From positions 1 through 45,578 of the forward strand of contig JBEKKD010000002.1 of the NCBI GenBank assembly GCA_050010895.1: a DNA stretch of 45,578 nt, read 5' to 3'. Position 1 is the stretch's first letter; every line of letters begins with the position of its first letter. Source of the DNA: Armatimonadota bacterium. GTDB lineage: Bacteria > Armatimonadota > Hebobacteria > Hebobacterales > Hebobacteraceae. This document shows, one piece after another, positions 7,087 through 43,328 of the stretch. The notes under the pieces are model-generated. The model saw nothing but the letters and a program-made list of their open reading frames with translations. It was not told where the DNA came from and ran no database searches. A program made the position numbers and the translations under genes.

Positions 7087-7261
7087 CGGCCATTCCCCCT
7101 ATCGGAGAAGTGAAGGCGGCTTAGTGTTCGCTCCCGCGTCAGCGATTCCTCTACATATGTGGAAATTGCTGGCGCGGCAGGATGCGAACGCCGCGATCCG
7201 CCGGAGGCGCGGGTCGCGCACTCGCAGACCTGCTACCCGTCGGTGGCGGCGCCCGCCGTCC

Positions 7262-9025: not shown

Positions 9026-9249
9026 GGCGGGCGCTCCTTTCGCGATCAGGAGGGACATCGGCGCGGTCCGGTCACCCACAGGCCGAGTGATGGTGAGCGC
9101 TGTGACACCCCCTGAAAAGGCGCTGAATACTAGCATGTCAATGGCGTTGAAGTCAACCGAAAAGCCGCCCCGAATGCTGCCTGTGAATGAGCAACCACTT
9201 TCCTGGCTGTAGCGGATGGACGTGCGGTGCCGTCGCGTCTGTTGCCATG

Positions 9250-10299: not shown

Positions 10300-10518
10300 C
10301 GTTCAGTCTCCTGGGACGCAATGTGCCGCCCTGCCTACGCCGGAGATTAGACCGCGGAAAGAGGCCGCGAGTTCCGGCTGCTCCGCGGCGCGCATCCCAG
10401 AATGGTCGCTTTTCGTTCACACTTCTGTTAGCATAAAAGCGTATTGTTAGGATGGGATAGCAGAGGCCGCGCTTCTGCCCTGATTGGACGCCGTCTCGAC
10501 GGCTGAAGGAGATTGGGA

Positions 10519-12578: not shown

Positions 12579-13352
12579 ATGGTCGGCGCGCTTGGCCGGC
12601 AAGCGATTGCTGCTGTCGCTTTCGTGGGAGACCAAGTGCTGCTGCTGACGAGCGCGACCGGATACATCGCGCGCGGGCGGCTTGGGCTGCGCCGGACCAT
12701 GGACCAGATGGCGATCGCGGGCACGGACTCCCTGCCCATCGTGGTCGTGACGCTGCTCTTCGTGGGTATGGCCTGGGGCTTCAACACGGTGCACTATCTC
12801 GTGCAGTTCGGGGCCATCAGCTATTACGGCGGAAGCACGTCGATTGCGATCGCTCGCGAGCTCGGTCCTGCTCTCTGCGGAGTCGTGGTGGCCGCGCGCA
12901 TCGGCTCCGCGTATGCGGCCCAGCTCGGAACCATGGTGGTCACCGAGCAGGTCGACGCGCTGCACGCGCTCGCCGTGAACCCCATTTACTACCTCGTCGT
13001 CCCGCGACTGGTGGCCTGCGTCCTCATGCTGCCTGTGCTGACGGTGGTGGCCGACGTCACAGGCATTTTCGGCGCCTTCATCATCTCGGTGAACCAGGGA
13101 ATCAGCTCCGGCGTCTACATCAGCTCGATCCAGCAGTGGATGAGCGCCAATGACCTATACGGAGGGATCGCGAAGGGGTTCGTCTTCGGGGCCATCATTG
13201 CGCTGGTCGGCTGTCGGCAAGGGCTCCGCACGACCGGCGGCGCCGAGGGGGTAGGCCGCGCTGCCACCAGTTCGGTGGTGCTCAGCATCGTGCTCATCTA
13301 CATCGCGAATCTGCTCCTAACCGTGTTCCTCTTCGGCGGACCTGCGACATGA
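12579..13352 (+). CDS. mlaE: MlaE-family ABC transporter permease
   Basis: The ATG is preceded by GAGGAGG. The 257-aa polytopic protein carries the MlaE/YrbE-like segment ARELGPALCGVVVAARIGSAYAAQLGTMVVTEQVDAL. It is followed by an ATPase gene and an MCE gene. Confidence 0.85.
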   Translation: MVGALGRQAIAAVAFVGDQVLLLTSATGYIARGRLGLRRTMDQMAIAGTDSLPIVVVTLLFVGMAWGFNTVHYLVQFGAISYYGGSTSIAIARELGPALCGVVVAARIGSAYAAQLGTMVVTEQVDALHALAVNPIYYLVVPRLVACVLMLPVLTVVADVTGIFGAFIISVNQGISSGVYISSIQQWMSANDLYGGIAKGFVFGAIIALVGCRQGLRTTGGAEGVGRAATSSVVLSIVLIYIANLLLTVFLFGGPAT

Positions 13353-14122
13353 CGGCCTCGGATAGCCCCGCGTTGGCGGTCCGGAAGCTCTCCTACGCCG
13401 TTGGCGGTAAGACCGTTCTCGATGGTGTAGATCTCACCGTGGCCCGCTCCGAGATCATGGGCATCATGGGCCGCAGCGGCACCGGCAAGACGACGCTGCT
13501 GAGGCTGATCATGGGGCTGGTGAAGCCGGCCGCAGGCGGGATTCTGGTCTTCGGTCGGGACATCGTCGGCCTGAGCGAGGAGCAGCTCGACCGCGTTCGT
13601 CTGGATATGGGAATGGTGTTTCAGGGGGCTGCGCTCTTCGATTCCATGACCGTCGCCGAGAACGTTTCCTTCGGCTTGATGGAACATCGGCGCGTCCCGC
13701 GGAAAGGCATGGCAGGGCGGGTTCGTGAATTGCTTGAAATGGTGGACATGGGCGGCAGCGAGAATCTGATGCCGGCGCAGTTGTCCGGGGGAATGCGCAA
13801 GCGCGTCGGCATCGCGCGGGCGCTCGCCATGGAACCGTCGCTCATGCTGTACGACGAGCCGACTGCCGGCCTGGACCCCATCTCCGCCGTAGCCATCGAT
13901 ACCCTCATCGTTCGGCTGTGCGAACAGGTGGGGGTAACCTCGGTCATCGCCTCGCACGACGTTCCCAGCCTGCGCCGGGTATCGGATCGCGCGGCGCTGC
14001 TGCACAACGGCGCGTTCGCCGCCGTCGGAAGCATGGCCGGGCTCGAGGCGAGCGCCGATCCTGTGGTGAGACAGTTTCTGTCGGGCAGCCCCGAGGGTCC
14101 GATGACCGGCGAGGCGGGATAG
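13349..14122 (+). CDS. mlaF: MlaF-like ABC transporter ATP-binding protein
   Basis: Walker A is GRSGTGKTT, the signature is LSGGMRKRVGIARAL and Walker B is LMLYDEPTAGLD. The start overlaps the mlaE stop as ATGA. Confidence 0.9.
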   Translation: MTASDSPALAVRKLSYAVGGKTVLDGVDLTVARSEIMGIMGRSGTGKTTLLRLIMGLVKPAAGGILVFGRDIVGLSEEQLDRVRLDMGMVFQGAALFDSMTVAENVSFGLMEHRRVPRKGMAGRVRELLEMVDMGGSENLMPAQLSGGMRKRVGIARALAMEPSLMLYDEPTAGLDPISAVAIDTLIVRLCEQVGVTSVIASHDVPSLRRVSDRAALLHNGAFAAVGSMAGLEASADPVVRQFLSGSPEGPMTGEAG

Positions 14123-14133
14123 GGAGGTACACG

Positions 14134-15519
14134 GTGCGGCATGGTGCAGAACTCAAAGTCGGGTTGATCACCCTCCTGGCGGTGGCGCTGCTCGCGCTCT
14201 TCACCTACTACATCCGCGGCAGCCTCGGCGCCAAGCACACCTACGCCGTCTTCGTGCTCTTCGACAATGCTCGCGGGCTGCAGCAGGGCGATCCTGTGCG
14301 TATGGTGGGGGTGAAGATCGGCGAGGTGAACAGCGTCAAGATCACGCCGGCTCCCCGCAAGGCCCAGGTCATGCTGGTGATAGACAGGCAGTATCCCCTC
14401 TACTACAACTACACGTTTCAGATCGCCGCGAGCGGGCTGATCCAGGAGCGCTCCATTGAGGTGATTCCCGCGCCGCCCGGCGAAGAGGGTCTGCAGCTCG
14501 CCGACCAGAGCAAGGTTGCGGGCACCGCCGCGCCCGATCTGTCGGACCTGCTCCAGGCCGGGGGAACCGTTCTCACCAGCCTCCAGCAGACCTCCGAGCA
14601 GCTGCGTTCCGTAATGGGCGACAAGGAACTGATGGGGAATGTGCGCAAAGCGCTGGAGAGCTTCGCCCTCGCGTCCGACTCGGCGAGAGATCTGGCCGAT
14701 ACCGCCGCGGCCATCGCTCAGCAGTCCCAGCCCCAGACGCAGGAGATACTGACGCGACTGCGGATGGCGGCGGCCGACATGCAGTCCACCACGAGCGCCG
14801 TCCGCGATACCCTCCAGAAGGGCACGACGCTTCAGGACCTGCAGGAGACAGCAGCCAACGTCCGCGCCACCAGTAAGAACGCGGAGCGTCTGAGCGCCAG
14901 CATCGCCGAACTTGCCGGGAATCCAGAGGTACAAGGGGACCTGAAAGGCACGGTGAAGGACCTTCGCACCATGACCGCGACGCTCAAGGATGTCTCGGCC
15001 GATCTGAAGGCATTCTCCGGGCAACTGAAAGAGGCCGCTCCGTCGATCCCGAGGGTGGCAAAGCAGGCCGAGCAGATGACCACCACCGTGACCCAGTTGC
15101 AGGAGCGGCTGAAGCCCCCGGAGATGCACGCCGATTTCCACGTGCTCTACAGCCCTAAGGCCGGACGCAGCTTCTCCACCGCCAACGTGGACTTCAACTA
15201 TCCCACGATGTCGCAGCGCTTCCTGAGGCTGGGCGTCGATGATATCGGAGAGGAGACCGGCGTCAACGCCCAGGTCGGGGAGCGGATGCGGCTCGGGGCG
15301 ATACGATATGGCCTCGTACGATCGCGGCTCGGCATCGGATTTGACTACCGGCCGCGCGGGCGGGCCGGCGTCTCGGTGGACCTCTTCAATCCGAACTCGC
15401 TGCGCGCGGATGTGATGGGCGACGTCCCCCTGGCCAACAGCGACTGGTCCCTGATGATGGGCGTGCGTGACCTGGGCAAAGGGAACCTGTACGTGGTCGG
15501 CGGCAAAGTCACGCGATGA
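14134..15519 (+). CDS. MlaD/MCE-domain protein with a long helical region and a beta-rich C-terminal extension
   Basis: The GTG at 14134 lies 6 nt after GGGAGG. The TM anchor is LKVGLITLLAVALLALF. The MCE core is FDNARGLQQGDPVRMVGVKIGEVNSVKI. It is followed by ~230 aa of helical low-complexity sequence and ~135 aa with alternating-hydrophobic (beta-like) patterns. The product is 461 aa. Confidence 0.8.
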   Translation: MRHGAELKVGLITLLAVALLALFTYYIRGSLGAKHTYAVFVLFDNARGLQQGDPVRMVGVKIGEVNSVKITPAPRKAQVMLVIDRQYPLYYNYTFQIAASGLIQERSIEVIPAPPGEEGLQLADQSKVAGTAAPDLSDLLQAGGTVLTSLQQTSEQLRSVMGDKELMGNVRKALESFALASDSARDLADTAAAIAQQSQPQTQEILTRLRMAAADMQSTTSAVRDTLQKGTTLQDLQETAANVRATSKNAERLSASIAELAGNPEVQGDLKGTVKDLRTMTATLKDVSADLKAFSGQLKEAAPSIPRVAKQAEQMTTTVTQLQERLKPPEMHADFHVLYSPKAGRSFSTANVDFNYPTMSQRFLRLGVDDIGEETGVNAQVGERMRLGAIRYGLVRSRLGIGFDYRPRGRAGVSVDLFNPNSLRADVMGDVPLANSDWSLMMGVRDLGKGNLYVVGGKVTR

Positions 15520-19172: not shown

Positions 19173-19820
19173 TCACTTCTGCCCGTACTTCTCCCGGTAC
19201 CTCTTATGCGCACGGGCTACCTCATCGGCGGGAATCTCGACCAGTTCACCAATCTGCATCGCCAGGAAACACGTCCGCGCCGCGTCCTCCACCATCACCG
19301 CACTCTTCAGCGCCGCCTCTGGTGACTCGCCGATGGTGAACACACCGTGGTTCTTCATCAGAATCGCCTTCGACGCGCCGATGCAGTCCACGACCGCCTT
19401 CCCGATTTCCTCCTCGCCGATCGCTGCGTACGGACCCACTGGGATCGGGCCGCCGAATTCGTCCGCGATCGCCGTCAACGAACACGGGATGCCTTTGCCG
19501 ACCGCGGCGAATGCCGTCGCGTAGTTCGAGTGGGTGTGCACCACCCCGTTCACATCCCCGCGCCGGCGGTAGATGTAGAGATGCGTCGCCGTGTCCACGG
19601 AAGGCTTGAGTTTCCCTTCGACCGCCTTCCCTGTGAGCCTCACGACCGACATGTCTGCAGGCTGCAAGCTTTCGTACGCTACGCCGCTCGGCTTGATCAC
19701 CACCAGGCCGGTTTCGGCATCGCGGCCGCTGACGTTCCCGCTCGTCATCATCACCAGCCCCTGCCTTTCAAGCTCCTTGTTAAGCCCGCACACCCGCTCT
19801 TTCAGCCCCTCTAGCATCAT
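19173..19820 (-). CDS. araD: L-ribulose-5-phosphate 4-epimerase / class II aldolase family protein
   Basis: The sequence LEGLKERVCGLNKEL...TSGNVSGRD...VVIKPSGVAYESL...VEGKLKPSVDTATHLYIY...VVHTHS parallels AraD, and the C-terminus ends KYGQK. The product is 215 aa. Confidence 0.8.
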   Translation of the reverse strand: MMLEGLKERVCGLNKELERQGLVMMTSGNVSGRDAETGLVVIKPSGVAYESLQPADMSVVRLTGKAVEGKLKPSVDTATHLYIYRRRGDVNGVVHTHSNYATAFAAVGKGIPCSLTAIADEFGGPIPVGPYAAIGEEEIGKAVVDCIGASKAILMKNHGVFTIGESPEAALKSAVMVEDAARTCFLAMQIGELVEIPADEVARAHKRYREKYGQK

Positions 19821-21244
19821 TCCTCCGTTCGGCAGGAGCCCCTGAGCCGGATCCGCGCATAGGACAGGGCATCGCCGCCGTCAGTTCGGGTTCCATAGAC
19901 GTCCAGGATGCGCGAGGGCGCAGAGCCAGCGCGCCAGGTAGCTGTGTAGAAGCGCGTAAACGGGCGCTCGAGAGGCACTCGCGCGGCTGGAGTCTGTGTG
20001 CCATCCGGGAGAATCTCGAGGACGCGATTCTCAGATACCTCTTCGCCCTTCTCGTTCTGACCGCGAACGTAGTAGAACGCATAGAGACGGCCGTCTTTCG
20101 TGACCTGGAATCGGCCGGTGCCCGGAATCTCGCTCGACTCGCCTTCGCCTCCGATCTGGATGGGCCGTTTCAGCTCTACCTTACCGCTGCGCACTCTCGC
20201 GTACATCAGCGCGTGGGTCTGCTTCTCGTTCGGGAAGAACTTCGCGCGCATCCGTTCATCGAGCGCGCGCTCCGTCCACAGCACATGCACAACTCCGTCC
20301 GGCCCGACCCAGAGATCGTTCGGCATGATCCAGCCGCAGGTCTTGTCGCGGCTGGAGATCTCAACCCAATCATGGAACGTGCCGCTCGCGATGTCGTCAC
20401 TCCACGTGAAGAAGAGACGGCGGAAATCGTAGTCCCAGTCTCGCCCGGAAACCTCTTTCTTGTACTCGCGCCACTGCGGATATGGCTCGATGACGTCGCT
20501 CACTCCGCAGAAGTAGACGGCGCGGTCCTTCAGCGCTACGGTCGGATAGCAGGTCCGGATCGGCGCGGGTTTCCGGTAGTCGGCTCCCCAGGGCCAGTTC
20601 AGCTTGCCATAGGCCGACCATGTGCCGGTACGGCCTCGGAAGCTCCATTCCGCGTGGGTGTAGCCTACATTCTGGAAGAGGATCAATTCGCCGTTCTTCC
20701 CGTCGGCGGCGAAGCTGCGGTAGGAGTGCTCGGTGAACTCCGGGACGCCCTCCCAGACCGGCAGAAGCTTTTGCGGGGCTGCGCCGGCACCTGCAGGGGA
20801 GAACCGCAATACCTCGGGCCTGGCAGGCCCGTTGTAGTCATCGGGCTCCGTCAGTGTCGGGTTATCGGAGAGAAAAAGCGATCCGTCCGAGAAGGATGCA
20901 AGCGGGCACGGCTCGCGCGTTCGCCCATCACCGCATCGGATGGCCTCCCAGTTGTCCGCACCGCGCTGGTAGAGGGTCCATCGTACATTGTTCAATGGTT
21001 TCGCGCCAGGTACCATGTCAATGCCGCTGATGAAAACCTTCTCTCCGGCTCGGGCAATGCAGGTCGAACCATACGACCATAGTGGACCTGCGCCGTTGTT
21101 CGCGGCCTGCGCGGAGTAGACATCTTCCTCCGCTTCGATCATCATCGCATCAGGTTTCGCGTGCTTATCCGGGTCTGCTTCAGATGATGAAGCGCCGAGC
21201 GCGCACACCAGAAATGCGGTAGCTATCATGCAGACATCGAGCAT
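19817..21244 (-). CDS. Secreted hypothetical protein (475 aa), no family recognised
   Basis: The ATG at 21244 lies 7 nt after GGAAGAG. The signal-like N-terminus is MLDVCMIATAFLVCALGASSS. The composition looks coding and is Trp/Tyr-rich. Its stop overlaps the araD start as ATGA. Confidence 0.6.
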   Translation of the reverse strand: MLDVCMIATAFLVCALGASSSEADPDKHAKPDAMMIEAEEDVYSAQAANNGAGPLWSYGSTCIARAGEKVFISGIDMVPGAKPLNNVRWTLYQRGADNWEAIRCGDGRTREPCPLASFSDGSLFLSDNPTLTEPDDYNGPARPEVLRFSPAGAGAAPQKLLPVWEGVPEFTEHSYRSFAADGKNGELILFQNVGYTHAEWSFRGRTGTWSAYGKLNWPWGADYRKPAPIRTCYPTVALKDRAVYFCGVSDVIEPYPQWREYKKEVSGRDWDYDFRRLFFTWSDDIASGTFHDWVEISSRDKTCGWIMPNDLWVGPDGVVHVLWTERALDERMRAKFFPNEKQTHALMYARVRSGKVELKRPIQIGGEGESSEIPGTGRFQVTKDGRLYAFYYVRGQNEKGEEVSENRVLEILPDGTQTPAARVPLERPFTRFYTATWRAGSAPSRILDVYGTRTDGGDALSYARIRLRGSCRTEE

Positions 21245-21800: not shown

Positions 21801-23168
21801 ATGCGGGGATCACAGCCGTCTGTGCAGCAGGTGTGGGACCAGGTTCTCGATGTCTTGGGCAAGAAGCTTGCCCGTCCTTCGTTCGAAAGCTCCATCAAAC
21901 AGGTCCGTCCCAAGTCCATCGAGCAGGACACTCTCGAGCTCAGTGTGTCCTCCGAATTCGCTCGCGACTGGCTCAAGAAGAAAGGCCTGAAGGCGATCGA
22001 GGCCGCGGTCGAGCAGGTGATGGGACGGCCATTGAAGATCGTGCTCGAACTGGCCCAACTCGACTTGGATCTCGATGAGCGCCCAGCCGCGCCGCGCCGC
22101 CAAGTAAGAGCCGCCAGGACGCAGGATGAGGCCGTGCTCGCCACCAACCCGTTGAACCCGAAGTACAGCTTTGGGAACTTCGTAGTGGGCAAGAGCAATC
22201 AGTTCGCTCAGGCAGCGGCTCTCGCAGTCGCCAACAAGCCCGGCAACTCATACAATCCGCTGTTTCTCTATGGCGGCGTGGGGCTCGGGAAGACGCACCT
22301 CATGCAGGCCATCGGCCTCCACACCCTCGCCAGCCGGCCCGAGCTTCGGGTCCAGTACGTCTCAGGCGACACATTCACGTTCCACGTCGTGTCCTCCATC
22401 CGGGATGACCGGTTTGGGGCGTTTCGCAAGAAGTACCGCGAGGTTGACCTCTGGTTGGTGGACGACATCCAGTTCATCGCCGCCAAGGAGCGCACCGAAT
22501 CGGAGTTCTTCCAGGTATTCAACACCCTGTATGAGACCGGCCGGCAGGTCGTGATCACGAGCGATCGTCCGCCGAAGGAACTCCAGATCATGGACGACCG
22601 CCTCCGCTCCCGCTTCGAGTGGGGACTGATCGCCGATATCAAGCCACCGGATTTTGAGACGCGGATGGCGATCCTCGCTCGGAAGGCTCAAGCGGAGCGC
22701 GCCGATGTGCCAGAGGATGTGCTGCGGTACATAGCAGGTGTCGTCAAATCGAATATTCGCGTGCTCGAAGGTGCGCTCATCAAAGTGCTGGCCGCGGCGT
22801 CGCTGACGGCAGCCCAAATCGATCTCAAGTTAGCGGTCGAGCAGCTTCGCGACCATTCACTGGATACGCACCAGCAGCCGCTGAGCATCGCGCGGATCCA
22901 GCAGCTCGTCGCCGAGCATTTCAGCCTGACCGTCCCGGAACTGACGGCGCCGAACCGAACGCAAGGCGTTGTGCACCCGCGCCAGATCGCGATGTACCTG
23001 TGTCGCGAACTCCTCAATGCCTCCTTCCCGAGCATCGCGCGCGCCTTCGGAGGGAAGGACCATTCCACCGTCATTCACGCCTGCACAAAGATCCGCGGAG
23101 AGATGGACGACAACGCGATTCAGGCGCTGATCAATGAGCTTGCTGCGAAGCTTCGTTCCGAAGTCTGA
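21801..23168 (+). CDS. dnaA: Chromosomal replication initiator protein DnaA
   Basis: The sequence contains NPKYSFGNFVVGKSNQFA, the Walker A motif LFLYGGVGLGKTHLMQA, LVDDIQFI, ITSDRPP and RSRFEWGL. The C-terminal DNA-binding helix region is VHPRQIAMYLCRELLNASFPSIARAFGGKDHSTVIHA. The ATG follows AAGGGGGA. Confidence 0.97.
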   Translation: MRGSQPSVQQVWDQVLDVLGKKLARPSFESSIKQVRPKSIEQDTLELSVSSEFARDWLKKKGLKAIEAAVEQVMGRPLKIVLELAQLDLDLDERPAAPRRQVRAARTQDEAVLATNPLNPKYSFGNFVVGKSNQFAQAAALAVANKPGNSYNPLFLYGGVGLGKTHLMQAIGLHTLASRPELRVQYVSGDTFTFHVVSSIRDDRFGAFRKKYREVDLWLVDDIQFIAAKERTESEFFQVFNTLYETGRQVVITSDRPPKELQIMDDRLRSRFEWGLIADIKPPDFETRMAILARKAQAERADVPEDVLRYIAGVVKSNIRVLEGALIKVLAAASLTAAQIDLKLAVEQLRDHSLDTHQQPLSIARIQQLVAEHFSLTVPELTAPNRTQGVVHPRQIAMYLCRELLNASFPSIARAFGGKDHSTVIHACTKIRGEMDDNAIQALINELAAKLRSEV

Positions 23169-23382: not shown

Positions 23383-23522
23383 CCGCAGCCGTTTCGTCCA
23401 CTGTTTGCCTGTACTCGTGGCGTTCCGATCAGCCACGGCTTCTCCGGTATCGCGGAACCAACGAAGGGCTTCTCCTGTCTAATGCGATGGTTGTCCCCTG
23501 CGATGCGAGGAGTGGATCTCAT

Positions 23523-26500
23523 ATGACGTACGGATTCCGCCGCTCCAGGAAATGGCTGGTAGTCATCGGTCTGTCGGTGGCTACGGCTGCGGTCGTAGGG
23601 ACAAGCGCGTCGCTCTCTTCCGGGGAGCTATCACCCCTGGAAACCGTGATCCGAGGACAGACGGACTGGCTAGCTGCCGGACCGGTTTCCCTGCGAGTTA
23701 TCGTAACCGACCACCGGACTGGCCGCCCGGCACGCGGCACTGTGCAGATCTCCATAGCCCCCACAGATCGACACGGCTCGAGAAGCACTCAGATCTTCGC
23801 CGGGAAACTCAGCGGGGGCACCGTCAACGCAGCATTTCAGGTTCCCGACGTTCCGCCCGGACGGTTCGAGATGGCCGTGAACGTTGCCTCCAACCTGGGG
23901 AAAGACACGGTCACGCGATCGGTCACGATCAAGCGCGAAACCCAGATCCTGCTGACAACCGATAAGCCGCTCTATCAACCCGGACAGACGATTCACCTGC
24001 GTGTATTGGCGCTGAGAAAGCCGTCTCTGACCCCTGCAGCGGGGCAGACAGTCACGCTCGAGGTGGAAGACTCAAAAGGCAACAAGGTCTTCAAACAGCC
24101 GCTCAGGGCGTCCAAGTTCGGCCTTGCGTTCGCCGACTTCACGCTGGCTGACGAGATCAACTTCGGCACGTACACGGTCCGTGCGGTCATGGAAGACGGC
24201 CAATCCGAGCGCACGGTTGACGTCAAACGCTACGTCCTCCCCAAGTTCAAGGTGGCCGCCACGACTGATAGACCCTACTATCTTCCTGGGCAGAAACTGA
24301 CCGGGAAAGTCCAGTGTGATTACTTCTTCGGCAAGCCGACCTCCAAGTCGGATGTCCTGATAACCCTGTCAAGCTTCGATGTGGGTTTCAAGGAGTTCGC
24401 GGAAATCAAGGGCGTGACCGACGACACCGGCCTCTTCAGGTTTGAGGCAGATCTGCCCGCGTACTTCGTCGGTCAGCCCCTCGAACAGGGCAGCACGTTC
24501 GTCAAGCTCGACGTGGAGGTGACGGATCGGGCCGAGCATACCGAGAAGGTGACCCAGACCGTGCCGGTGGCGAACAGTGAATGGATCGTGACCGCGGTGC
24601 CGGAGGCAGGCGAGATCAAGGTGGGGCTGGAGAACGTCGTGTATGTACTGGTATCGACGCCGGACGGGCAGCCCGTTCGCGATGTGCTGGTCCTCGGCAG
24701 CACATCGGTGATGACGAGGCAGATGCCTGAGTATGTCAGAGGCACAACCGATGACACTGGCGTCGCTGAGTTACGCTTCCAAGACATGGGCCGACGAAGC
24801 GACGCAAACACAACGTACCTAGAGGTGGGGGTCAAGGACAAAGCCGGCCGCACGGTAAGGAGAGAGGTCAACCTGCCTGCCACAAGGGGCGAACAGGCGC
24901 TCCTCCTCCGCGCCGACAAGGCCATATGCAAGGTTGGCGACTCGGTTCACTTAGCCGTGCTCTCCACGAAGCAGACCGGCACGACGTACATCGACGTTAT
25001 CCGTGACAACCAGACCGTCCTCACCCAGGCAGTTGACCTGACGCACGGACGCTCTCAACTGAGCCTGCCGATCTCGCATGACATGGCAGGCACGCTCGAG
25101 GTCTACGCCTACCAGATCCTCCCCGACGAGAACATCATCCGGGACACGCGTCGGATCTACGTCTCGCCGGCCGACGATCTGGTGGTCGAGGTGAGGCCGG
25201 ACCTGAAGACCTACCGCCCGGGGCAGCAGGCGAAGCTTCGATTCTCGGTGCGCGATCAGAAGGGGAAACCAACGCTGGCGGCCCTGGGAGTGACGATCGT
25301 AGACGAAAGCGTGTTCGCGCTCCAGGAGATGCAGCCCGGCCTGGAGCGGGTGTATTTCGCGCTCGAGAAGGAGTTGCTGAAGCCGCGCTATGAGATTCAC
25401 GGCTTCACCCCGGAAGGGATCATCTCGGGCCGCCTGCCGTTCGAGGCGCCAAGACCGGCCGAAGAAGAGGCGGCCCGGCAGCGAGCAGCCGCGGTGCTCT
25501 TCGCCGCCGCGGAGCAGCGCGATCCCTACACCCTCACGGTCAACACCTACGATGAGCGCGTGCAAAAAGCGATGGACGAGTGGGTCAAACAGGTCGCCCG
25601 CGATGCGGAACGTATCGACCGGGCGCTGCGGGCCTACTACCAGCGCTACCGCCAATACCTGGGGCAGAACGAAGACATCTCGGTCCTGGTGGATGAAGGG
25701 CTTCTCCGGAAGCGCGATGTTCGCGACCAGTGGGGCCGCCAGTACCGAGTCCATTGGTGGCAGGCCAACTGCAGCCTGGATTCCGCCGGCCCCGACGGGA
25801 AGTGGGGGACCAGCGATGACATCCTGGGCATCGGCCAATGGGCAAAGGACGGCCGCGGGGGCGGTAGGGGCGGCATGCGCGGTGGCGGCCTGGGCGGCGG
25901 AATCATGTTCAAAGCAGCGAGAGAGGCAGCCGGGCTCGACGCCGTGAACGCTCCAATGCCGGCGGCCGCCGCACCCCTGCAACTGGCCGCAGCCAAGCCC
26001 GAGTCTGCTGCGCAGCCCCAGGTGCGCCTCCGCCAGTTCTTCCCGGAAACGATGTACGTCAACCCCGCTCTGATCACGGATGAACGCGGGCAGGCGACCG
26101 CCACGGTGGAGATGGCGGACTCCATCACCACGTGGCGTCTGCAGGCCCTGGCGTCTTCTCAACGAGGCCAACTGGGGAGCGCTACCACCGGTCTGCGGGT
26201 TTTCCAGGATTTCTTCGTTGACATCGACCTGCCGGTGGCTCTTACCCAGAACGATGAAGTCTCGATGCCGGTAGCGGTCTACAACTACCTTGCGAAACCA
26301 CAGACCGTTAAGCTCTCCCTCGAGGAGCAGCCCTGGTTCGAGTTGGTCGATGGTGAGGCCGTCAGGTCCCTGGACATCGCGGCCTCCGACATCAAGGTCG
26401 TGTACTTCAGAGTTCGCGCGAAGAAGATCGGCATGAATGCGCTCACCGTCCATGCCCAGGGGACGACGCTCTCGGACGCCATCAAGCGCCAGATCGAGGT

Positions 26501-28121
26501 GATGCCGGATGGCGAAGAGCATCGCGACACCTGGAACGACCGGCTCGAGGGCGCCGTCGAGAAAGCGGCGACGATCCCGGCTCAAGCGGTCCCGGATGCC
26601 TCCACCATCCTCGTCAAGATCTACCCGGGTCTGTTCAGTCAGGCGGTGGAGGGGCTGGACTCGCTGCTCCGGATGCCGTTCGGCTGCTTCGAGCAGACCA
26701 GCTCCGTAACCTACCCGAACGTGCTCGTCCTCGACTACCTCAAGACCACCAAGCAAGCGAAGCCCGAGATCCAGATGAAAGCCGAGCAGTACGTCAATGT
26801 CGGCTATCAGCGGCTGCTCTCCTTCGAGGTAAAGGGCGGGGGCTTCTCCTGGTTCGGTGACGCTCCGGCGCACAAGGTGCTCACCTCCTATGGGCTGCTC
26901 GAGTTCCACGACATGAGTCGAGTGCATCAGGTCGATGAGAACGTCATCACTCGCACTCAGGACTGGCTCGCCGGCCTCCAGCAGAAGGACGGGACCTGGG
27001 AGCGCGATCCCGGCGGAATCGCCGAGGGGATCATCAACCGCCAGACTGACGTGCTGCGCGTTACCGCGTACATCACCTGGGCACTGGCTGAATCCGGCTA
27101 CAAAGGCCAGACCCTGGACCGCGCTTTCAGCTATCTCGACGCGCATTGGGCAGACGCCAAAGACCCCTACGCACTGGCTGTGACCGCCAACGCCTACCTG
27201 AGCGGCAGGCCGGATGCGAAGCTCGTCTCGGATGTGCTGGCTGCGCTCGCCAAACTGGCGGTGGTCGATGACAAGGGAGCGTACTGGAAATCGCAGGCGC
27301 CAACCTTCACCTCCGCTCAGAATGGGGCTGCAGATCTCGAGACAACCGCACTCGCCGCCTACGCGCTGGTCAAGTCGGGCCGCTACGTGGAGCTGACGAA
27401 CAAGGCGATCACCTTCCTGATCCGTTCCAAGGACAGCTTCGGCACCTGGCAGACGACTCAGGCGACAGTGTGGGCGTTGAAGACGCTGCTACTGGCGCTC
27501 AAACAGGCCGCGCAGGAGATCGACGCGACCGCGACGGTCGAGATCAATGGCAAGCAGGCCGCCTCCTTTCGCATCACTCAGGCTGACTACGATGTGGTCA
27601 GGCAAGTGGATGCGCGCCAGTTGATCCACGAAGGCAGGAATGATGTCAAGATCGCGCTGGACGGCAAAGGCAGCGCGCTGTACCAGATCGTCGCCAAGTA
27701 CTACATCCCCTGGGACCAGGTGAAGCGTCCTCCCCAGGAGTTGCTGAATATCGACGTGAGCTACGATCGGACATCGCTGGCGACCAACGACACCATCACC
27801 GCCTCTGTCCAGGTGACCAACAATGACCCGCGCGCCGCGAATATGATCGTGGTGGACCTTGGTCTGCCGCCTGGGTTCGAGGTCATGAGCGAAGACCTTC
27901 AGAAGCTGGCCGCCGAGAAAACGATCCAGAAGTTTACTGTCGCCGCCAGGCAGATCATCGTCTACCTGGACAGACTAGCGCCCCATAAGCCACTGGCCTT
28001 CTCTTACCGCCTCCGAGCGAAGTACCCGATCAAGGCAGCGACACCGGCCTCGAAGGTCTACCGCTACTACAACCCGGAGATCAGCGCGACTGCCAAGCCG
28101 ATTGACCTGGAAGTGAAGTAG
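23523..28121 (+). CDS. Alpha-2-macroglobulin family protein (bacterial A2M, thioester-containing), membrane-anchored or secreted
   Basis: The ATG at 23523 lies 10 nt after GAGGAG. The N-terminal hydrophobic anchor is WLVVIGLSVATAAVVG. Repeated MG-domain starts occur (DKPLYQPGQTIHLRV, DRPYYLPGQKLTGKV, DLKTYRPGQQAKLRF). The A2M/C3 motif is RQFFPETMYVNP, the thioester motif is MPFGCFEQTS, and the receptor-domain-like segment is MIVVDLGLPPGFEV. The product is 1532 aa. Confidence 0.9.
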   Translation: MTYGFRRSRKWLVVIGLSVATAAVVGTSASLSSGELSPLETVIRGQTDWLAAGPVSLRVIVTDHRTGRPARGTVQISIAPTDRHGSRSTQIFAGKLSGGTVNAAFQVPDVPPGRFEMAVNVASNLGKDTVTRSVTIKRETQILLTTDKPLYQPGQTIHLRVLALRKPSLTPAAGQTVTLEVEDSKGNKVFKQPLRASKFGLAFADFTLADEINFGTYTVRAVMEDGQSERTVDVKRYVLPKFKVAATTDRPYYLPGQKLTGKVQCDYFFGKPTSKSDVLITLSSFDVGFKEFAEIKGVTDDTGLFRFEADLPAYFVGQPLEQGSTFVKLDVEVTDRAEHTEKVTQTVPVANSEWIVTAVPEAGEIKVGLENVVYVLVSTPDGQPVRDVLVLGSTSVMTRQMPEYVRGTTDDTGVAELRFQDMGRRSDANTTYLEVGVKDKAGRTVRREVNLPATRGEQALLLRADKAICKVGDSVHLAVLSTKQTGTTYIDVIRDNQTVLTQAVDLTHGRSQLSLPISHDMAGTLEVYAYQILPDENIIRDTRRIYVSPADDLVVEVRPDLKTYRPGQQAKLRFSVRDQKGKPTLAALGVTIVDESVFALQEMQPGLERVYFALEKELLKPRYEIHGFTPEGIISGRLPFEAPRPAEEEAARQRAAAVLFAAAEQRDPYTLTVNTYDERVQKAMDEWVKQVARDAERIDRALRAYYQRYRQYLGQNEDISVLVDEGLLRKRDVRDQWGRQYRVHWWQANCSLDSAGPDGKWGTSDDILGIGQWAKDGRGGGRGGMRGGGLGGGIMFKAAREAAGLDAVNAPMPAAAAPLQLAAAKPESAAQPQVRLRQFFPETMYVNPALITDERGQATATVEMADSITTWRLQALASSQRGQLGSATTGLRVFQDFFVDIDLPVALTQNDEVSMPVAVYNYLAKPQTVKLSLEEQPWFELVDGEAVRSLDIAASDIKVVYFRVRAKKIGMNALTVHAQGTTLSDAIKRQIEVMPDGEEHRDTWNDRLEGAVEKAATIPAQAVPDASTILVKIYPGLFSQAVEGLDSLLRMPFGCFEQTSSVTYPNVLVLDYLKTTKQAKPEIQMKAEQYVNVGYQRLLSFEVKGGGFSWFGDAPAHKVLTSYGLLEFHDMSRVHQVDENVITRTQDWLAGLQQKDGTWERDPGGIAEGIINRQTDVLRVTAYITWALAESGYKGQTLDRAFSYLDAHWADAKDPYALAVTANAYLSGRPDAKLVSDVLAALAKLAVVDDKGAYWKSQAPTFTSAQNGAADLETTALAAYALVKSGRYVELTNKAITFLIRSKDSFGTWQTTQATVWALKTLLLALKQAAQEIDATATVEINGKQAASFRITQADYDVVRQVDARQLIHEGRNDVKIALDGKGSALYQIVAKYYIPWDQVKRPPQELLNIDVSYDRTSLATNDTITASVQVTNNDPRAANMIVVDLGLPPGFEVMSEDLQKLAAEKTIQKFTVAARQIIVYLDRLAPHKPLAFSYRLRAKYPIKAATPASKVYRYYNPEISATAKPIDLEVK

Positions 28122-31155: not shown

Positions 31156-31880
31156 TGGATGAACGTGAACTGACCGAATCCGCGGAGGAGCTTCTGGGGA
31201 GCCTCTGGACCGCCCGCGAGGAGCAGAGCGTGCCCCGCGGGGCTGGTGACGGGCCCGAGGTGCACGAACTAGCTGAGGCGGGCCTTATCGTCAGCAGCGC
31301 CCAGGGAGCCGCGCTGACCGAGGCAGGCGAGGCAGAGGCCGCTGCGATCGTGAGAAGAGAACGCCTGGCAGAGCGCCTGCTGGCCGACGTGCTAGCCGTA
31401 GGCGACAGCGTCGCAACAGAAGCAGCCTGCAGATTCGAGCACCTTCTCCGTCGCGGGATCGACGACCAGATATGCACGCTGCTGGGACATCCAAGAGTGT
31501 GCCCGCATGGCAGCCCGATACCGCTTGGCGAATGCTGCCGGTCGGGGGCAGAGGACGCGACCCGAGTGGTCTCACCTCTCGCGGACATGGCGGCAGGTGA
31601 GAAAGGCGTTATCGCCTACATCCAGAGCCAGCGGCGCGAGCATCTGCACAGACTGATGACCATGGGGGCTCTTCCCGGCGCTCCTATCACGCTCCGCCAG
31701 AGGTTCCCGTCCTTCGTGTTCGATTTGGGGAACGGGCAGGTCGCGGTGGACGAAGATACGGCCCGGGACATCTACGTACGGCTCGATGGCCAGACGCACG
31801 CCGCCGCGGGGCGGCCGCACTGGCTCGCACGCCGGCTGCGGCGTTCCCGGCCGACACGGTCGCCGCGCGGACGACCTTAG
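31155..31880 (+). CDS. DtxR-like metal-sensing and FeoA-domain protein with a degenerate or shortened N-terminal HTH
   Basis: The ATG overlaps the feoB stop as TGATG. The DtxR dimerisation and metal block is retained (RRERLAERLLADVL...EAACRFEHLL...CPHGSP). The FeoA-like C-terminus is GEKGVIAYIQSQRREHLHRLMTMGALPGAPITLRQRFPSFVFDLGNGQVAVDEDTARDIYV. The helix-turn-helix segment is about 11 aa shorter than in the upstream paralog. Confidence 0.7.
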   Translation: MDERELTESAEELLGSLWTAREEQSVPRGAGDGPEVHELAEAGLIVSSAQGAALTEAGEAEAAAIVRRERLAERLLADVLAVGDSVATEAACRFEHLLRRGIDDQICTLLGHPRVCPHGSPIPLGECCRSGAEDATRVVSPLADMAAGEKGVIAYIQSQRREHLHRLMTMGALPGAPITLRQRFPSFVFDLGNGQVAVDEDTARDIYVRLDGQTHAAAGRPHWLARRLRRSRPTRSPRGRP

Positions 31881-34800
31881 TCGGACGTCTTCTTGGTTTC
31901 GGCTATCGCCGGCTCCGTTGCCCCCTTCACCTCGGCAGCGAGCTTGTCGCTGCCGATATTGCCGGCCGCGTTGAATGCCCTCACCTCAACCGTGTGTTTG
32001 CCGGGTGAGAGCGGATCGGTGCTGACAGTGAAGTCAACTGTCAGCGAGTCCACGGCCGCAAGAGGAAGCGACTGCCAATCGCCGTCGTCGACTCGGTACT
32101 CCACGCTTCGTATCGCCGACAGATTGTCGGTCGCCGTGCCGCTGAATCGCACCCGCCGGTCGGGAGCGACCACAAGCGAGCTCTTGAACAGCATCACCTG
32201 AGGCGGCGTGTTGTCGATCCAGACCACCACCGTGTCGTCGTCCTGCATCGGATCGGATGGTTCGCTCTGCCGGTAGCTGGCGATCACCTTCAGTATCACG
32301 CGCCCGTCGGCCGTGGGTGTCGTATCCCAGTCGAACTTCATCTCGGTCAGGTTCTGCTTCAAAATGCTCCACGTCTGGCCAAGATCGCGGGAGAGGAGGA
32401 GATCGTAAGTCAGGGTGTCCTTGTCAGGGTCGCGTGCCTCCCACTTGACAGTATACTTCTTCTGGATCCTGTCGCCCGGGGAGGGCGCCTTCAACGTGAC
32501 TTCAGGCGGCAGATTGGTCGGATGGTACGCCACATACACTTGCCACACGACCGGCGACACCTGGGCATCCGTCGTGCTGAAGTTCAGGCGGTACTGCAAG
32601 TGGTTGGCAGGCGGACTGATGATCGCACCGGACGCCACCGGCGCCCAGCCGCTCCACCCATCCTCTGGTGACGGCGCGTCCCCGCTGCGCGTTTCCACTG
32701 CTACTGCGGTCCCAGTTGGTGTTTCCGCCGTCAACTCGATGTGACCCCATTTCGCCGGGCGGCCGGCATCCAGCATCGCCGATTCCATAGTGCCTGACGA
32801 GGCATACCCGGGGCCGAATCGCATCACCGCGGCCGGCGCAGTGGTCCCCAGGTACATCGCGCCCCCGCTCACGGCAAGCGCAGTGGCGATGCCGGTCTCG
32901 GGCCTGAAATCCATCCGCAGTTTGCGGTCGGAGCCGATCCGCATGACGATCCCGTTCGGCCCGGTAGCCGCCACCAGGTCGCCGCCAGGCAAGATGCCGA
33001 GCCCGTATACGGTTTTCTCATCGGTCTCGGCGTATAGCTTCAGCGATTTGCCCTGCTCTATCCAGTACATATCCCCGGCCGGAGACGCCCCCGCGTAGAG
33101 ATTCCCATTCCCGTCCATGACGAGTGCGCCGACCTCATTCGATGGCACTTGGCCAACTGCGCTCGCGGTTCCATCCGGTTTGATCCGAAAGATCACGCCA
33201 CTATCGGATGTTCCGGCATAGAGATCGCCCGAAGGACTCAGGACAAGAGACTGCACATTGCTGGCCGGAAGCTCGGACACGAGCTTGGCCTTGCCGGCCG
33301 GATCCACCGCGTAGATCCTGGCCGGGGCCCCGCCCCCGGCATACACTGTGCCGTCGGGGCCGATTGCCAGGCACCACAGATAGGTGCTGTCGGAGTCGTA
33401 CACGACCTTCCCAGAGCCGTCGGGCGAGATGCGGAAGAGCTTGCCTCGTGGCGACGTGCCTGCGTACAGATCGCCGTCTTTGGCGAACGCGAGCGCGTGA
33501 ACATTCATCTCGCCCGTTCTGAAGAACGCGGGAGCGTCTCCCTTGCCCGGAATCCTGTAGATGACGCCGTCGCTGCCGGTGCCGGCATACACAGTGTCGT
33601 CCCGTACTGCCAGGCTCCAGATCTCGTCCGCGGGCAGCTTCGCAAGATCGCTGCGCTCCGGCCCCAGCATCAACCGGCCGTCATCGGCCATGGCGATGTT
33701 CCTCAGCTTCGCATGTCCATAGTCGGCCGGGTTCTCCTGGACCCACGTCTGCGGGCCGCGCGCGAGCGGCGTGCCTTCCTGCTCCGGCTTCGACTGATCC
33801 CCTTTCGCGGGCGCATCCGGCTTGCCAGTTCCCCTCGTCGCCCCCATCTCGGCCGGAGCCGCATACAGATCGCCCTCCGGCAGCGCGCTCCCCGCGCGTG
33901 TCTGGTAACTGATGTCCTCGTCCTGACCTTGATCGTCCTCGGGCGGTCCGCCCGGAGGGCCACCAGGTGGCGGCTGGGGCGGGCCCTGTGCCTGTGGCGG
34001 CTGAGGTGTGGGCGCGGCCGGCGCGATAGAGCTTTCCACCGACAGCGTTATCTGCTGCCTTCCCGACAGTGACCATTGCATCGGCGCGGTGATCTTCATC
34101 ACTGTCGTCGCCGGTCTCAGGTCGGTGGGATGACTGGCGCGAATCGCTTCGAGCGCGCCGCGGGGCGCATCCGGCAGCTCCTCTCCGAGCAGGGTGGCGC
34201 CGCTCCGCGGCAGCGCGGCCTGGACCACCAGGTCCTGTCGCCGGTCTTGTGTCAGATACCGCTCCACGAGCTGATTCATGGAAATCGGAGCGGGCTTCGG
34301 CGCACCGACCGACGCGCGCGCTTCATCGGCCTCGCCGCCTCCGGATATCACGAGACGAACTGCCCCTCGAGGCAGATCGCGCGGCAGCTTCAGCCGAACG
34401 GGCATCTCCACAATCTGCTTGCCGTACGGCCTTACGGAGATATTCAGCGTGACCTCGTCACCTGCTCTCACCCGGGACTGCGGAATCGTCACGCGTTCGA
34501 TGGTGGCGGTCCTTCGCTCCTGCTCGATCTCGACGCGCACCCGAACCCGCCGCATCTGCAGCTTCCCGAAGGGAGTATCCGTGAAGGCCGCCAGCGGGCG
34601 CAGCACAGCCGGCATGGCGGCAGCGGCGGCGTCGCCGTCGCTGTAGCTCAGGTCCTCCCGCTTCATCACGGGACGGCCCTCTGCCTCGACCTCGGTGATC
34701 ACGTGCACTGTTCCGCGGGAGGAGCGACCTCGCGTCTCATCCACCGCGGTCATCACAGAGATCGCCGCCAGACTCGGGAGCATCTCCCTGATCCGCGCGA

Positions 34801-35824
34801 GCCTGAGATGGAAGCTCCGGGTCCTGCCGCGGTCTCGATCGACCACCTCGACGGTGAGCGGCAACTGGTCGGCATTCACCCCGATCTCCCCGGCTGTCGC
34901 TGTCTGCGTATCCCGATATGCCCGGCCGACAACCTGGGTGCTGGACATGATCTTGGACGAGATCATCACGCTGGGCATGATATCGTACACGTACGAGCCC
35001 GTCATGGGCACGTCGATATCGCCGAGATCGAAGAGGTCATGCCCGAAGGCGAGAATGCGATTGCCCTCTACCAGCGTGATCGTACCCGACCCGCTGATGT
35101 CGAAGTCGCCGCCGACGAGCTGCACCGCCACGGAACCCCCGGCCACGATCGGCGGCCGCATGTTCTCGGTTCCGCCCGACGGCCCCGCCATCACCTGCAT
35201 GCCGTACGGCGAGAACAGCTCGGAGAGACGCCCAATGGCGCGCTGATTGAACCCCGACGCCTGGATGAAGCCGCTCAACGGCACCAGGCTCATCGTCCCT
35301 GGCGGGTCAGGCCGTCCCGGCTGCTCGGCCACGCGCACCTGCTCGATCCGGCGGCCGGCCACCGAGATCGGGCGATCGAGGGGGTGGGACGAGCCCGCCG
35401 CGCTCGCTTTCGCGCCCGGACTGGCCTGCCAGGCCTCGAGCATCTCCTCGATGGGCCGAATCCCCGTGATGGGCTCTTTGCTGAACGACCATCCGTACGC
35501 GATGGCGCCGATAAGCTTGCCGTCGATGTAGACCGGGCTGCCGCTCATCCCCTGGATGATGCCGCTCTTTCTGGCAACAACGGGACCATCGAGGATCCGG
35601 GCGAGGATGATGTTGCGCGTGCCCTCAAACTTATGCATCACCCCGATAATCTCGAGGTGGAACGAGTCGATCCTGGTGCCGCGAAAGACGGATTTCGCGG
35701 TTGCGCGCTGCCCTGCATGAATCTGATTCACTGGCAGAATCGGGGTCTTCAAGCAATACGCGGCACGAGCATTCAACATGAGCAGCAGGCTCAACGCGCA
35801 ACAGATCCGGACAGATCGAAGCAT
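31877..35824 (-). CDS. Large secreted S55 (SpoIVB-type) peptidase-domain protein with a Pro-rich linker, beta-propeller repeats and C-terminal Ig/FN3-like domains
   Basis: The ATG at 35824 lies 6 nt after GGAG. The signal-like N-terminus is MLRSVRICCALSLLLMLNARA. The S55/trypsin-like block is IIQGMSGSPVYIDGKLIGAIAYGW. The Pro-rich tract is PQPPQAQGPPQPPPGGPPGGPP. About seven ~40-aa repeats contain the motif D/G-x-(L/V)-Y-A-G-T/G. The C-terminus has beta-sandwich-like modules. The product is 1315 aa. Confidence 0.8.
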   Translation of the reverse strand: MLRSVRICCALSLLLMLNARAAYCLKTPILPVNQIHAGQRATAKSVFRGTRIDSFHLEIIGVMHKFEGTRNIILARILDGPVVARKSGIIQGMSGSPVYIDGKLIGAIAYGWSFSKEPITGIRPIEEMLEAWQASPGAKASAAGSSHPLDRPISVAGRRIEQVRVAEQPGRPDPPGTMSLVPLSGFIQASGFNQRAIGRLSELFSPYGMQVMAGPSGGTENMRPPIVAGGSVAVQLVGGDFDISGSGTITLVEGNRILAFGHDLFDLGDIDVPMTGSYVYDIMPSVMISSKIMSSTQVVGRAYRDTQTATAGEIGVNADQLPLTVEVVDRDRGRTRSFHLRLARIREMLPSLAAISVMTAVDETRGRSSRGTVHVITEVEAEGRPVMKREDLSYSDGDAAAAAMPAVLRPLAAFTDTPFGKLQMRRVRVRVEIEQERRTATIERVTIPQSRVRAGDEVTLNISVRPYGKQIVEMPVRLKLPRDLPRGAVRLVISGGGEADEARASVGAPKPAPISMNQLVERYLTQDRRQDLVVQAALPRSGATLLGEELPDAPRGALEAIRASHPTDLRPATTVMKITAPMQWSLSGRQQITLSVESSIAPAAPTPQPPQAQGPPQPPPGGPPGGPPEDDQGQDEDISYQTRAGSALPEGDLYAAPAEMGATRGTGKPDAPAKGDQSKPEQEGTPLARGPQTWVQENPADYGHAKLRNIAMADDGRLMLGPERSDLAKLPADEIWSLAVRDDTVYAGTGSDGVIYRIPGKGDAPAFFRTGEMNVHALAFAKDGDLYAGTSPRGKLFRISPDGSGKVVYDSDSTYLWCLAIGPDGTVYAGGGAPARIYAVDPAGKAKLVSELPASNVQSLVLSPSGDLYAGTSDSGVIFRIKPDGTASAVGQVPSNEVGALVMDGNGNLYAGASPAGDMYWIEQGKSLKLYAETDEKTVYGLGILPGGDLVAATGPNGIVMRIGSDRKLRMDFRPETGIATALAVSGGAMYLGTTAPAAVMRFGPGYASSGTMESAMLDAGRPAKWGHIELTAETPTGTAVAVETRSGDAPSPEDGWSGWAPVASGAIISPPANHLQYRLNFSTTDAQVSPVVWQVYVAYHPTNLPPEVTLKAPSPGDRIQKKYTVKWEARDPDKDTLTYDLLLSRDLGQTWSILKQNLTEMKFDWDTTPTADGRVILKVIASYRQSEPSDPMQDDDTVVVWIDNTPPQVMLFKSSLVVAPDRRVRFSGTATDNLSAIRSVEYRVDDGDWQSLPLAAVDSLTVDFTVSTDPLSPGKHTVEVRAFNAAGNIGSDKLAAEVKGATEPAIAETKKTSD

Positions 35825-36037
35825 GGGCGTCTCCGCGATCGGGAAATTGTCGTGAGCATAGCACCTCGATCTCCCAAGGGTCAAGGAAAAGGGAATCAAG
35901 ATCGACAGCGTTGTGCGCGTAACCATTCATCCATCCGCCCCCTCTCCCGTCTTGGATCGCGTGATCTTGACGATGCCATGTAGGGGTGTTACCATCGAGC
36001 GCGGCCGGGAAGGGCGCTACGGTCGTGATCGAGGAAC

Positions 36038-43126: not shown

Positions 43127-43265
43127 ATGGGTGCTACCTCTGAGGATGGTGCAGGCAAGTTCGACTGCCGGCCGGGTATCTCCTCCACTGGTTTACCCGG
43201 CCTCGGTCAGCGCGAGGTCTAGCGGCGGCATTGCTCGAAATGTTATGATAAGACGTCTCCCGTAT

Positions 43266-43300
43266 GGTGCGCACGAATCGGGTGCGCACCTCTTTCTTGT
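43266..43300 (+). terminator. Terminator-like hairpin in the 5' leader of the 43329 gene, a candidate attenuator
   Basis: A 9-bp perfect stem GGTGCGCAC / GTGCGCACC has a 7-nt loop and is followed by TCTTTCTTGT. It lies about 30 nt upstream of the ATG at 43329. No upstream + strand gene is present for it to terminate. Confidence 0.4.
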
Positions 43301-43328
43301 CAGCGGCTATCACGAAGGAGTGCCGTTC

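Follow-up and report, generated by a model that had tools for sequence, protein, structure and literature searches.

The cleavable moiety of the alpha-2-macroglobulin (A2M) superfamily comes in two kinds, an unstructured bait in the inhibitors and a structured ANA domain in the complement factors, and with both of them the alpha'NT segment is threaded through the MG2-MG3-LNK channel, from which it retracts upon cleavage (PMC9352918). R732 and F735 of human A2M are the 'plug-in-channel' residues, and mutating them blocks the formation of native A2M (PMC9352918). Two types of bacterial A2M have been described: type I (ECAM/YfhM, Sa-A2M), a lipoprotein with a thioester whose gene shares an operon with pbpC (PBP1c), and type II (MagD/YfaS), which is without thioester and is encoded in the six-gene mag operon (PMC5764988). 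In the pseudopilins PulG and OutG, Ca2+ is bound by the side chains of D117, S/T122, D125 and possibly D124, to which residues 114 and 119 add their backbone carbonyls, and PulG without calcium turns disordered and is degraded in vivo (PMC13081927). Here we describe an A2M-family protein of 1544 residues, encoded at 23487..28121 on the forward strand of a 45,578-nucleotide stretch of an Armatimonadota bacterium (contig JBEKKD010000002.1, positions 1 to 45,578; hereafter the window), which carries in its bait loop a module homologous to the soluble head of GspG, the major pseudopilin of type II secretion systems (T2SS).

The window protein resembles each of these systems in part. With the metazoan A2Ms (human A2M, A2ML1, CD109 and frog A2Moo) it shares the order MG1-6, bait loop, MG7, CUB-TED with CxEQ and MG8, as well as the plug arginine and phenylalanine, and a disordered, hypervariable bait right ahead of the plug. 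Unlike them it is bacterial, has a signal or anchor segment, and carries a bait loop that is about 105 residues longer and holds the pseudopilin domain. The module lies, like the ANA domain of complement C3, C4 and C5, between LNK and alpha'NT, upstream of the alpha'NT motif (FPES in the complement factors), with a bait tract intervening. However, its fold and origin are unrelated to those of ANA: Foldseek returned pseudopilins and pilins only, Pfam gave no ANATO match, there was no sign of furin-like processing on the N-terminal side of the module, and the folded domain is accompanied by a long disordered bait. With GspG, PulG, EpsG and OutG it has in common the alpha/beta head fold, the DxWGxxY hallmark, and the S-x-G-P-D-G-x-x-x-T-x-D-D-I loop with all side-chain ligands, whereas it is an internal domain of a 1544-residue protein instead of a free subunit, has no N-methylated Phe and is not encoded in a gsp operon. 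As for the bacterial A2Ms, both types are likewise members of the superfamily directed to the periplasm or envelope, and CxEQ is common to the window protein and type I. The window protein nevertheless fits neither type: unlike type I it has no lipobox or pbpC neighbour and stays below the thresholds of the bMG models, and unlike type II it keeps the thioester and lacks a mag operon.

Results

The module occupies 25527..25841 on the forward strand, corresponding to residues 681-785 of the A2M-family open reading frame (ORF). The original prediction, made from the letters of the window alone, had seen a GspG-like segment at 25600-25905; this was the right place (residues 705-807, with 25600 as the second base of a codon), although the module starts at about residues 681-687, upstream of the peptide that was quoted then, and ERIDRAL begins at residue 708 (nt 25608). 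At the level of the family, the resemblance to GspG is well past chance. In an alignment of 59 non-redundant orthologous inserts, 56 were recognized by the Pfam model T2SSG (PF08334) at E<=0.01 (best 2.7e-9), and the profile made from this alignment matched, among all PDB sequences, eight distinct GspG, PulG and EpsG entries with E-values of 2.5e-9 to 2.3e-5, the next match being at 0.08. As such, the proposal that T2SSG would recognize the insert held for the orthologues and found support in the PDB profile matches, whereas the window copy alone stayed below the gathering score, its match covering profile positions 12-108 of 108. Relatives with several copies of the module do pass the Pfam T2SSG threshold (57, 46 and 43 bits). 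The same module profile matched no A2M-family chain in the PDB, ECAM and the Salmonella A2M included, which agrees with the remark that such a domain is not known from characterized bacterial A2Ms.

Structure prediction likewise returned a folded domain and not a disordered loop, as had been anticipated. AlphaFold2 on the alignment of the 59 inserts gave a mean predicted local distance difference test (pLDDT) score of 81 and a predicted TM score of 0.66, with a 36-residue N-terminal helix followed by two short helices and three strands; in the window protein the long helix takes up 35 residues (687-721). Within a larger model of residues 540-960 (421 residues, with 69 homologues), mean pLDDT per ten residues of the module was 85-98. 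A Foldseek search of the PDB ranked GspG, PulG and EpsG structures at all of the first nine places (probability 0.97-1.0, TM 0.52-0.62), with type IV pilins after them.

Several parts of a pseudopilin are missing from the module. It has neither the class III prepilin signal peptide (G|F-T-L-x-E) nor an N-terminus with Phe1 and Glu5, and it is without a hydrophobic alpha1N; the GspG equivalog model TIGR01710 reached 10 bits against a cut-off of 88.85. Since leader and alpha1N are absent and the equivalog score is not reached, the module is a captured head domain rather than a pseudopilin. Its amphipathic helix begins at residue 687, roughly at the start of the Pfam head-domain model, with a polar, low-pLDDT linker ahead of it. 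In this place a short motif, [FY]-[TSD]-[LF]-x-x-N-[TS]-Y, is conserved, reading YTLTVNTY in the window (residues 681-688, 25527-25550). The opening YTL is reminiscent of F-T-L, with which mature pilins begin, but Glu5 is lacking and so is the hydrophobic helix; the resemblance may be vestigial or coincidental.

The residues that are best conserved in the module are those of the predicted calcium site and of the GspG fold. The hallmark D-x-W-G-x-x-Y is present as DQWGRQY at 25725..25745 on the forward strand (residues 747-753) and aligns to the DPWG..Y of PulG; D747 was found in 59, W749 in 51, G750 in 54 and Y753 in 56 of the 59 inserts. Downstream of it, the loop SAGPDGKWGTSDDI (25782..25823, forward strand; residues 766-779) is predicted to be Ca2+-binding from its alignment with PulG and OutG. 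In a HMMER alignment to PulG, D770, T775, D777 and D778 correspond to D117, S/T122, D124 and D125 of PulG and OutG, and these putative ligands are 92-100% conserved (D770 in 58 of 59, T775 in 54 with Ser in another two, D777 and D778 in all 59). From this correspondence, the module probably binds Ca2+. A713, L734, L740, D747, G750, Y753 and G768 are near-invariant as well, and these positions are hallmarks of the GspG fold, not a new surface patch. Overall, mean column identity was 48% for the module versus 46% for the whole protein. In 11 of the 120 listed homologues (P0070, P0071, P0073, P0075, P0082, P0086, P0093, P0096, P0098, P0100 and P0116), the module contains a P-C-G-C-G sequence after the DxWGxxY strand and ahead of the following one; it may form a disulfide or bind a metal, and the window copy does not have it.

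With the module placed, the anatomy of the bait loop could be read from the 421-residue model. MG5 and MG6 strands are followed by helices (residues 607-674), a linker, the module, an unstructured stretch, and then further strands that belong to MG6 (its second half) and MG7, so that beta domains flank the loop on both sides. The helical linker of the bait-region domain (25302..25526, forward strand; residues 606-680) is conserved, with a commonest-residue frequency of 0.68, and directly ahead of the module eight residues (678-685) with pLDDT<50 form a flexible link. Behind the module, a hypervariable disordered tract of 61 residues (25842..26024, forward strand; residues 786-846) is presumed to be the true bait; residues 792-833 have a pLDDT of 34-49. 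Of the 117 long proteins within the 120 homologues that were listed out of 1787, 113 allowed the loop between VDESVFAL and FPET to be marked off and aligned. In these, the tract between the module and R-x-R-x-F-F-P-E-T measures 48-96 residues, is composed of 21% Ala, 16% Gly, 8% Pro, 7% Arg and 7% Met, and has an identity to the window of 0.19 versus 0.48 for the module. As a disordered hypervariable tract follows it, the module does not replace the bait, contrary to the suggestion that a pseudopilin domain had taken its place; it stands between conserved helices that are LNK-like and a tract of the classical bait type, which is presumably the better bait candidate of the two.

The Gly/Arg run that had also been pointed out, GRGGGRGGMRGGGLGGG (25851..25901, forward strand; residues 789-805), lies inside this tract, as does the Ala/Pro-rich stretch. 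It does not follow directly on the module as was stated, five residues (QWAKD) standing between them, and it was rejected as a functional motif, not being conserved among homologues. A Pro-Met dipeptide, often as x-P-M-A-A, occurs in 68 of the 113 tracts, compared to 33 +/- 4.7 (maximum 47) in 500 shuffles, at a median of 34 residues ahead of R-x-R-x-FFPET. As these sequences are related, the enrichment is only suggestive; the dipeptide could mark a short linear motif or a site at which cleavage is preferred.

The tract ends at the alpha'NT-like plug motif RLRQFFPETMYVNP (26025..26066, forward strand; residues 847-860). TVRKYFPETW of human A2M, from residue 730 onward, aligns to RLRQFFPET of the window, bringing R732 and F735 onto R849 and F852. 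All 69 sequences of the alignment have R849, F852, P853 and T855. Since we take the human bait region to be residues 690-728 in UniProt numbering, residue 730 directly follows it, and the insert does lie in the bait or linker slot where it had been placed. Solved A2M-family chains align only outside residues 612-846, on either side, and a Foldseek search with the 421-residue model found A2M, C5 and CD109 via their MG domains only, with poor global superposition.

The remainder of the ORF is that of an exported, thioester-containing A2M. Pfam recognized MG2 (101 bits), A2M_BRD (24906..25322, forward strand; residues 474-612, first half of MG5/MG6; 60.5 bits), A2M (residues 859-944, 71.8 bits), TED_complement (residues 1051-1334, 157 bits) and A2M_recep (residues 1450-1536, 62 bits), with weak matches for MG3 and MG4. 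The protein thus has an MG series with the bait loop in MG6, a TED with CxEQ, and a C-terminal MG8 or receptor-binding domain, as expected of the superfamily. The thioester motif GCFEQ (26682..26696, forward strand; residues 1066-1070) lies within the TED and was at least 90% conserved in an alignment of 69 homologues. At the N-terminus, a short polar stretch precedes a hydrophobic segment (23553..23609, forward strand; residues 23-41), being either a signal peptide or a signal anchor, and similar N-termini occur in homologues. Because this segment has no Cys, and hence no lipobox, the product is exported or signal-anchored and not a lipoprotein. An alternative start at M13 (nt 23523) would give 1532 residues, as in the 99%-identical database protein P0002.

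Among solved structures, a phmmer search placed human A2M first (1.9e-70), with A2ML1, CD109 and frog A2M down to 3.4e-50, followed by C4, insect TEP1, C3 and C5. Neither ECAM of E. coli nor Salmonella A2M (Sa-A2M) appeared among these PDB matches at E<=1e-5. The bacterial models bMG10 (25.1 bits, cut-off 26.2) and bMG5 (16.8 bits, cut-off 26.5) both fell below threshold in Pfam, and no significant NCBIfam family was found for the whole protein or for the excised segment.

The insert turned out to be the rule in a large group of proteins. A search with the whole protein gave 1787 homologues, mainly from metagenome-assembled genomes (MAGs) of Armatimonadota, and in most of the 120 listed ones DxWGxxY and/or S-x-G-P-D-G-x-x-x-T-x-D-D-[ILV] occurred at the same place by strict pattern search. 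Residues 540-960, as a single query against one genome per species, had relatives in at least 398 genomes, of which the best 80 loci were kept; the calcium-loop motif was present in 75 of these 80. They include Candidatus Hebobacteria as the closest to the window (66-70% identity), many Armatimonadota, among them a MAG of Chthonomonas calidirosea and the cultured Fervidibacter sacchari PD1 with its complete genome, and also Poribacteria, Planctomycetota (Pirellulales and Phycisphaerae), Hydrogenedentota, WOR-3, KSB3 and a Cyanobacteriota MAG. The genes of F. sacchari (NZ_CP130454.1; locus L066, ORF 5790-11126) and C. calidirosea carry both the module and GCFEQ. When the module profile was run against 1.84 billion representative proteins in a filter-free hidden Markov model search, 7548 matches reached E<=1e-3, of which 539 had E<=1e-10. 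The module marks a widespread, uncharacterized bacterial A2M subfamily, and is not confined to this window.

Many of the best matches to the module profile are proteins of ~1900-2100 residues in which a local hmmsearch located 2-4 tandem modules, at residues ~780-1190; the large-scale search reported up to five matched stretches per protein. These multi-module relatives (e.g. P0122, P0127, P0128 with its four modules, P0133 and P0137) belong to the A2M family and have GC.EQ ~214 residues past FPET, the same as in the window. Proteins of 270-430 residues consisting of 3-4 modules occur as well, and may be fragments from short contigs. In some relatives (P0127, residues 1247-1326; P0134, residues 712-792), a CarboxypepD_reg domain comes after the last GspG-like module and before MG6 resumes with its second half, so that folded inserts of different kinds have been taken up by the bait loop. 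P0122 (1986 residues) begins with a zf-HC2 zinc finger (residues 6-40) and a hydrophobic segment, which suggested a protease-sensing anti-sigma factor; this idea was dropped, as H-x3-C-x2-C occurred in one of 66 large and in none of 117 single-module proteins. The sole match of a word-indexed search with the segment alone was P0001 (197 residues, from an 80-kb ENA contig), which leaves the frame inside the module (…LLQALRPPRPLGARLPRALVARS…) and returns to it later, through a frameshift from either an assembly error or a pseudogene.

Part of this architecture is already visible to annotation pipelines, given that PF08334 is precomputed on ~12 of the 120 listed homologues and one homologue of 1576 residues is named 'type II secretion system protein GspG' by the NCBI pipeline; several others are labelled 'YfaS (alpha-2-macroglobulin family)' by that of JGI. 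No curated family for a pseudopilin-bearing A2M was found. In the full-text literature, with most subscription journals outside its coverage, we found no paper linking macroglobulins with pseudopilins, GspG or T2SSG, nor any that describes these A2Ms from Armatimonadota or Planctomycetota. The survey of homologues thus qualifies the idea of an unusual insert: it is common and in part flagged by pipelines, and is at the same time without a curated family or a paper that we could find.

The gene itself lies in the region of the chromosomal origin, the window (64.5% GC) containing recF, dnaN and dnaA and, downstream, DtxR/FeoA and FeoB; its own neighbours are dnaA, DtxR/FeoA and FeoB. The origin genes and an MlaE/MlaF/MlaD system are located at 4724-7086 (reverse), 21801-23168 (forward) and 12579-15519 (forward), and the Mla system suggests a diderm envelope. 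The window ORFs that were scanned include no pbpC, mag-operon or T2SS genes, and no transpeptidase or transglycosylase; T2SS and pilus genes were absent from the window and from two other loci. Inferring a function from the neighbourhood was abandoned, because the origin and iron-uptake context is shared by close relatives only and differs at a more distant locus. Past the Feo genes, downstream of the A2M gene, an ORF of 1349 residues (31877-35926, reverse) combines a SpoIVB-type Peptidase_S55 with beta-propeller repeats and Big_7. This arrangement is repeated at the locus of P0025 (L081), whose A2M is 68% identical, and reflects the synteny of fairly close relatives, not a functional link. 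Another ORF, of 1278 residues (273-4109, reverse), has NTP_transferase, hexapeptide and phosphoglucomutase/phosphomannomutase domains from residue ~447 onward and no Pfam match in its first ~440 residues; its GTG start may be over-extended, or the fusion may be an unusual one. Three further ORFs on the reverse strand had no Pfam match at the thresholds used: 19817-21244 (475 residues), 37579-40143 (854 residues) and 43134-44552 (472 residues).

Discussion

We consider it probable that the soluble head of a GspG-type pseudopilin was captured into the bait loop of an exported, thioester-containing, metazoan-like A2M, where it would serve as a Ca2+-stabilized stopper or scaffold that holds the plug and presents the bait. 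The cleavable moiety would then consist of two parts: a folded module of 105 residues, with a flexible linker on its N-terminal side, and a disordered bait of 48-96 residues rich in Ala, Gly, Pro and Arg, running straight into the conserved alpha'NT plug with R849 and F852. Because human A2M, C3, C4 and C5 all align from the alpha'NT motif onward, the module is in the slot of the ANA domain, and it may thus be a structured element on the entry side of the channel. If so, only cuts C-terminal to the module would trigger the trap, the canonical trigger being a cut within residues 786-846. Both this cleavage site and the stopper or scaffold role are what we infer from the arrangement of the loop. 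Furthermore, the retention of the module across phyla, with its calcium ligands and hallmarks kept, indicates purifying selection on a folded, metal-binding domain. With plug, thioester and disordered bait all kept, this canonical trigger would be the simplest expectation for the protein.

Several findings weigh against this reading and must be taken into account. The T2SSG score of the window copy is sub-threshold, at 12.5 bits in the whole protein and 17.2-19.3 when excised, for a gathering score of 21, and the Foldseek E-values of the module are modest (0.02-0.13) despite the high probabilities. The bait of human A2M needs no folded element and tolerates insertions (PMC9352918), and with a folded element being dispensable there, a stopper would not be mechanistically required as long as the chain N-terminal to the module is intact. 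Moreover, any docking of the module on MG3/MG8 or on the channel is hypothetical, the AlphaFold2 output giving no inter-domain contacts. Lastly, tandem arrays of 2-4 modules are not readily explained by a single stopper, or indeed well by any single reading.

One could go further and regard the module as a third, independently evolved kind of cleavable moiety: a Ca2+-stabilized stopper holding alpha'NT in the way ANA does, gated by proteolysis together with calcium or unfolding of the module, with one or more modules being shed on activation as an analogue of C3a release. This is a tentative extension of the stopper or scaffold role, and we would not expect it to hold.

Alternatively, the module could itself be a decoy bait that mimics abundant pseudopilins or pilins of the envelope, cleavable at low calcium or by a pilin-degrading protease, so that the trap senses an attack on pilus proteins. 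The module does lie in the bait slot, its calcium ligands are its best-conserved residues, the disorder and in vivo degradation of calcium-free PulG (PMC13081927) would provide the necessary sensitivity, and 2-4 tandem copies would multiply the bait. Baits are typically disordered and hypervariable, however, whereas this module is confidently folded and evolves as slowly as the MG scaffold, next to a tract of the classical bait type. A cut within the module would, moreover, act as a trigger through discontinuity of the chain alone, for which no mimicry is needed. For these reasons we regard a decoy as improbable.

Could the module be no more than a passive spacer, a small stable domain that ended up in a tolerant loop by chance and does nothing but make it longer? 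The bait region of A2M does tolerate replacement and extension (PMC9352918), the copy number of the module ranges from one to four or more, and some relatives have the unrelated CarboxypepD_reg in the loop. On the other hand, the insert has been kept in several phyla, with ~40-50% identity over residues 540-960, invariant calcium ligands and hallmarks, and almost no losses, and such constancy makes a mere spacer hard to believe as well.

A role in docking or anchoring appears doubtful to a greater degree. Here the module would bind a component of the T2SS or type IV pilus, a pseudopilus, a pseudopilin-like protein or the envelope, and thereby localize or oligomerize the A2M. Pseudopilin heads do form protein-protein contacts in filaments, and the host phyla, among them Planctomycetota and Armatimonadota, are rich in pseudopilin-like proteins. 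However, the class III leader and hydrophobic alpha1N that filament assembly requires are absent, neither the window nor the two other loci have T2SS or pilus genes, the conserved residues are those of the fold and the calcium site and make up no new surface patch, and the A2M ORF already has a membrane or signal segment at its N-terminus. The thought that the insert might change how the trap is anchored is therefore unsupported, the module being without a hydrophobic helix and without T2SS genes nearby.

Finally, chance resemblance, a low-complexity artefact or an assembly chimera, for which the sub-threshold Pfam score of the window copy and the single match of the word-indexed search could be cited, is already refuted by profile E-values of 1e-9 to GspG structures, by the match in fold, and by the insert keeping to the reading frame and being conserved across hundreds of independent assemblies, the complete genome of a cultured strain among them.

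The subfamily parallels the evolutionary step behind the complement-type proteins. In one slot it has both an unstructured bait and a structured, predicted metal-binding domain whose origin is unrelated, the domain being present in 2-4 copies in some lineages, and as such it is a natural experiment in how a folded element can be tolerated, or used, by the plug-in-channel trigger. It is also a clear case of a pseudopilin head reused outside any filament, and it accounts for the recurring mis-annotation of A2M proteins of 1500 residues as 'type II secretion system protein GspG'. With Fervidibacter sacchari PD1 and Chthonomonas calidirosea, cultured hosts are available for experiments. These proteins are of relevance both to the structural biology of A2M and complement, and to the evolution of pilin folds.

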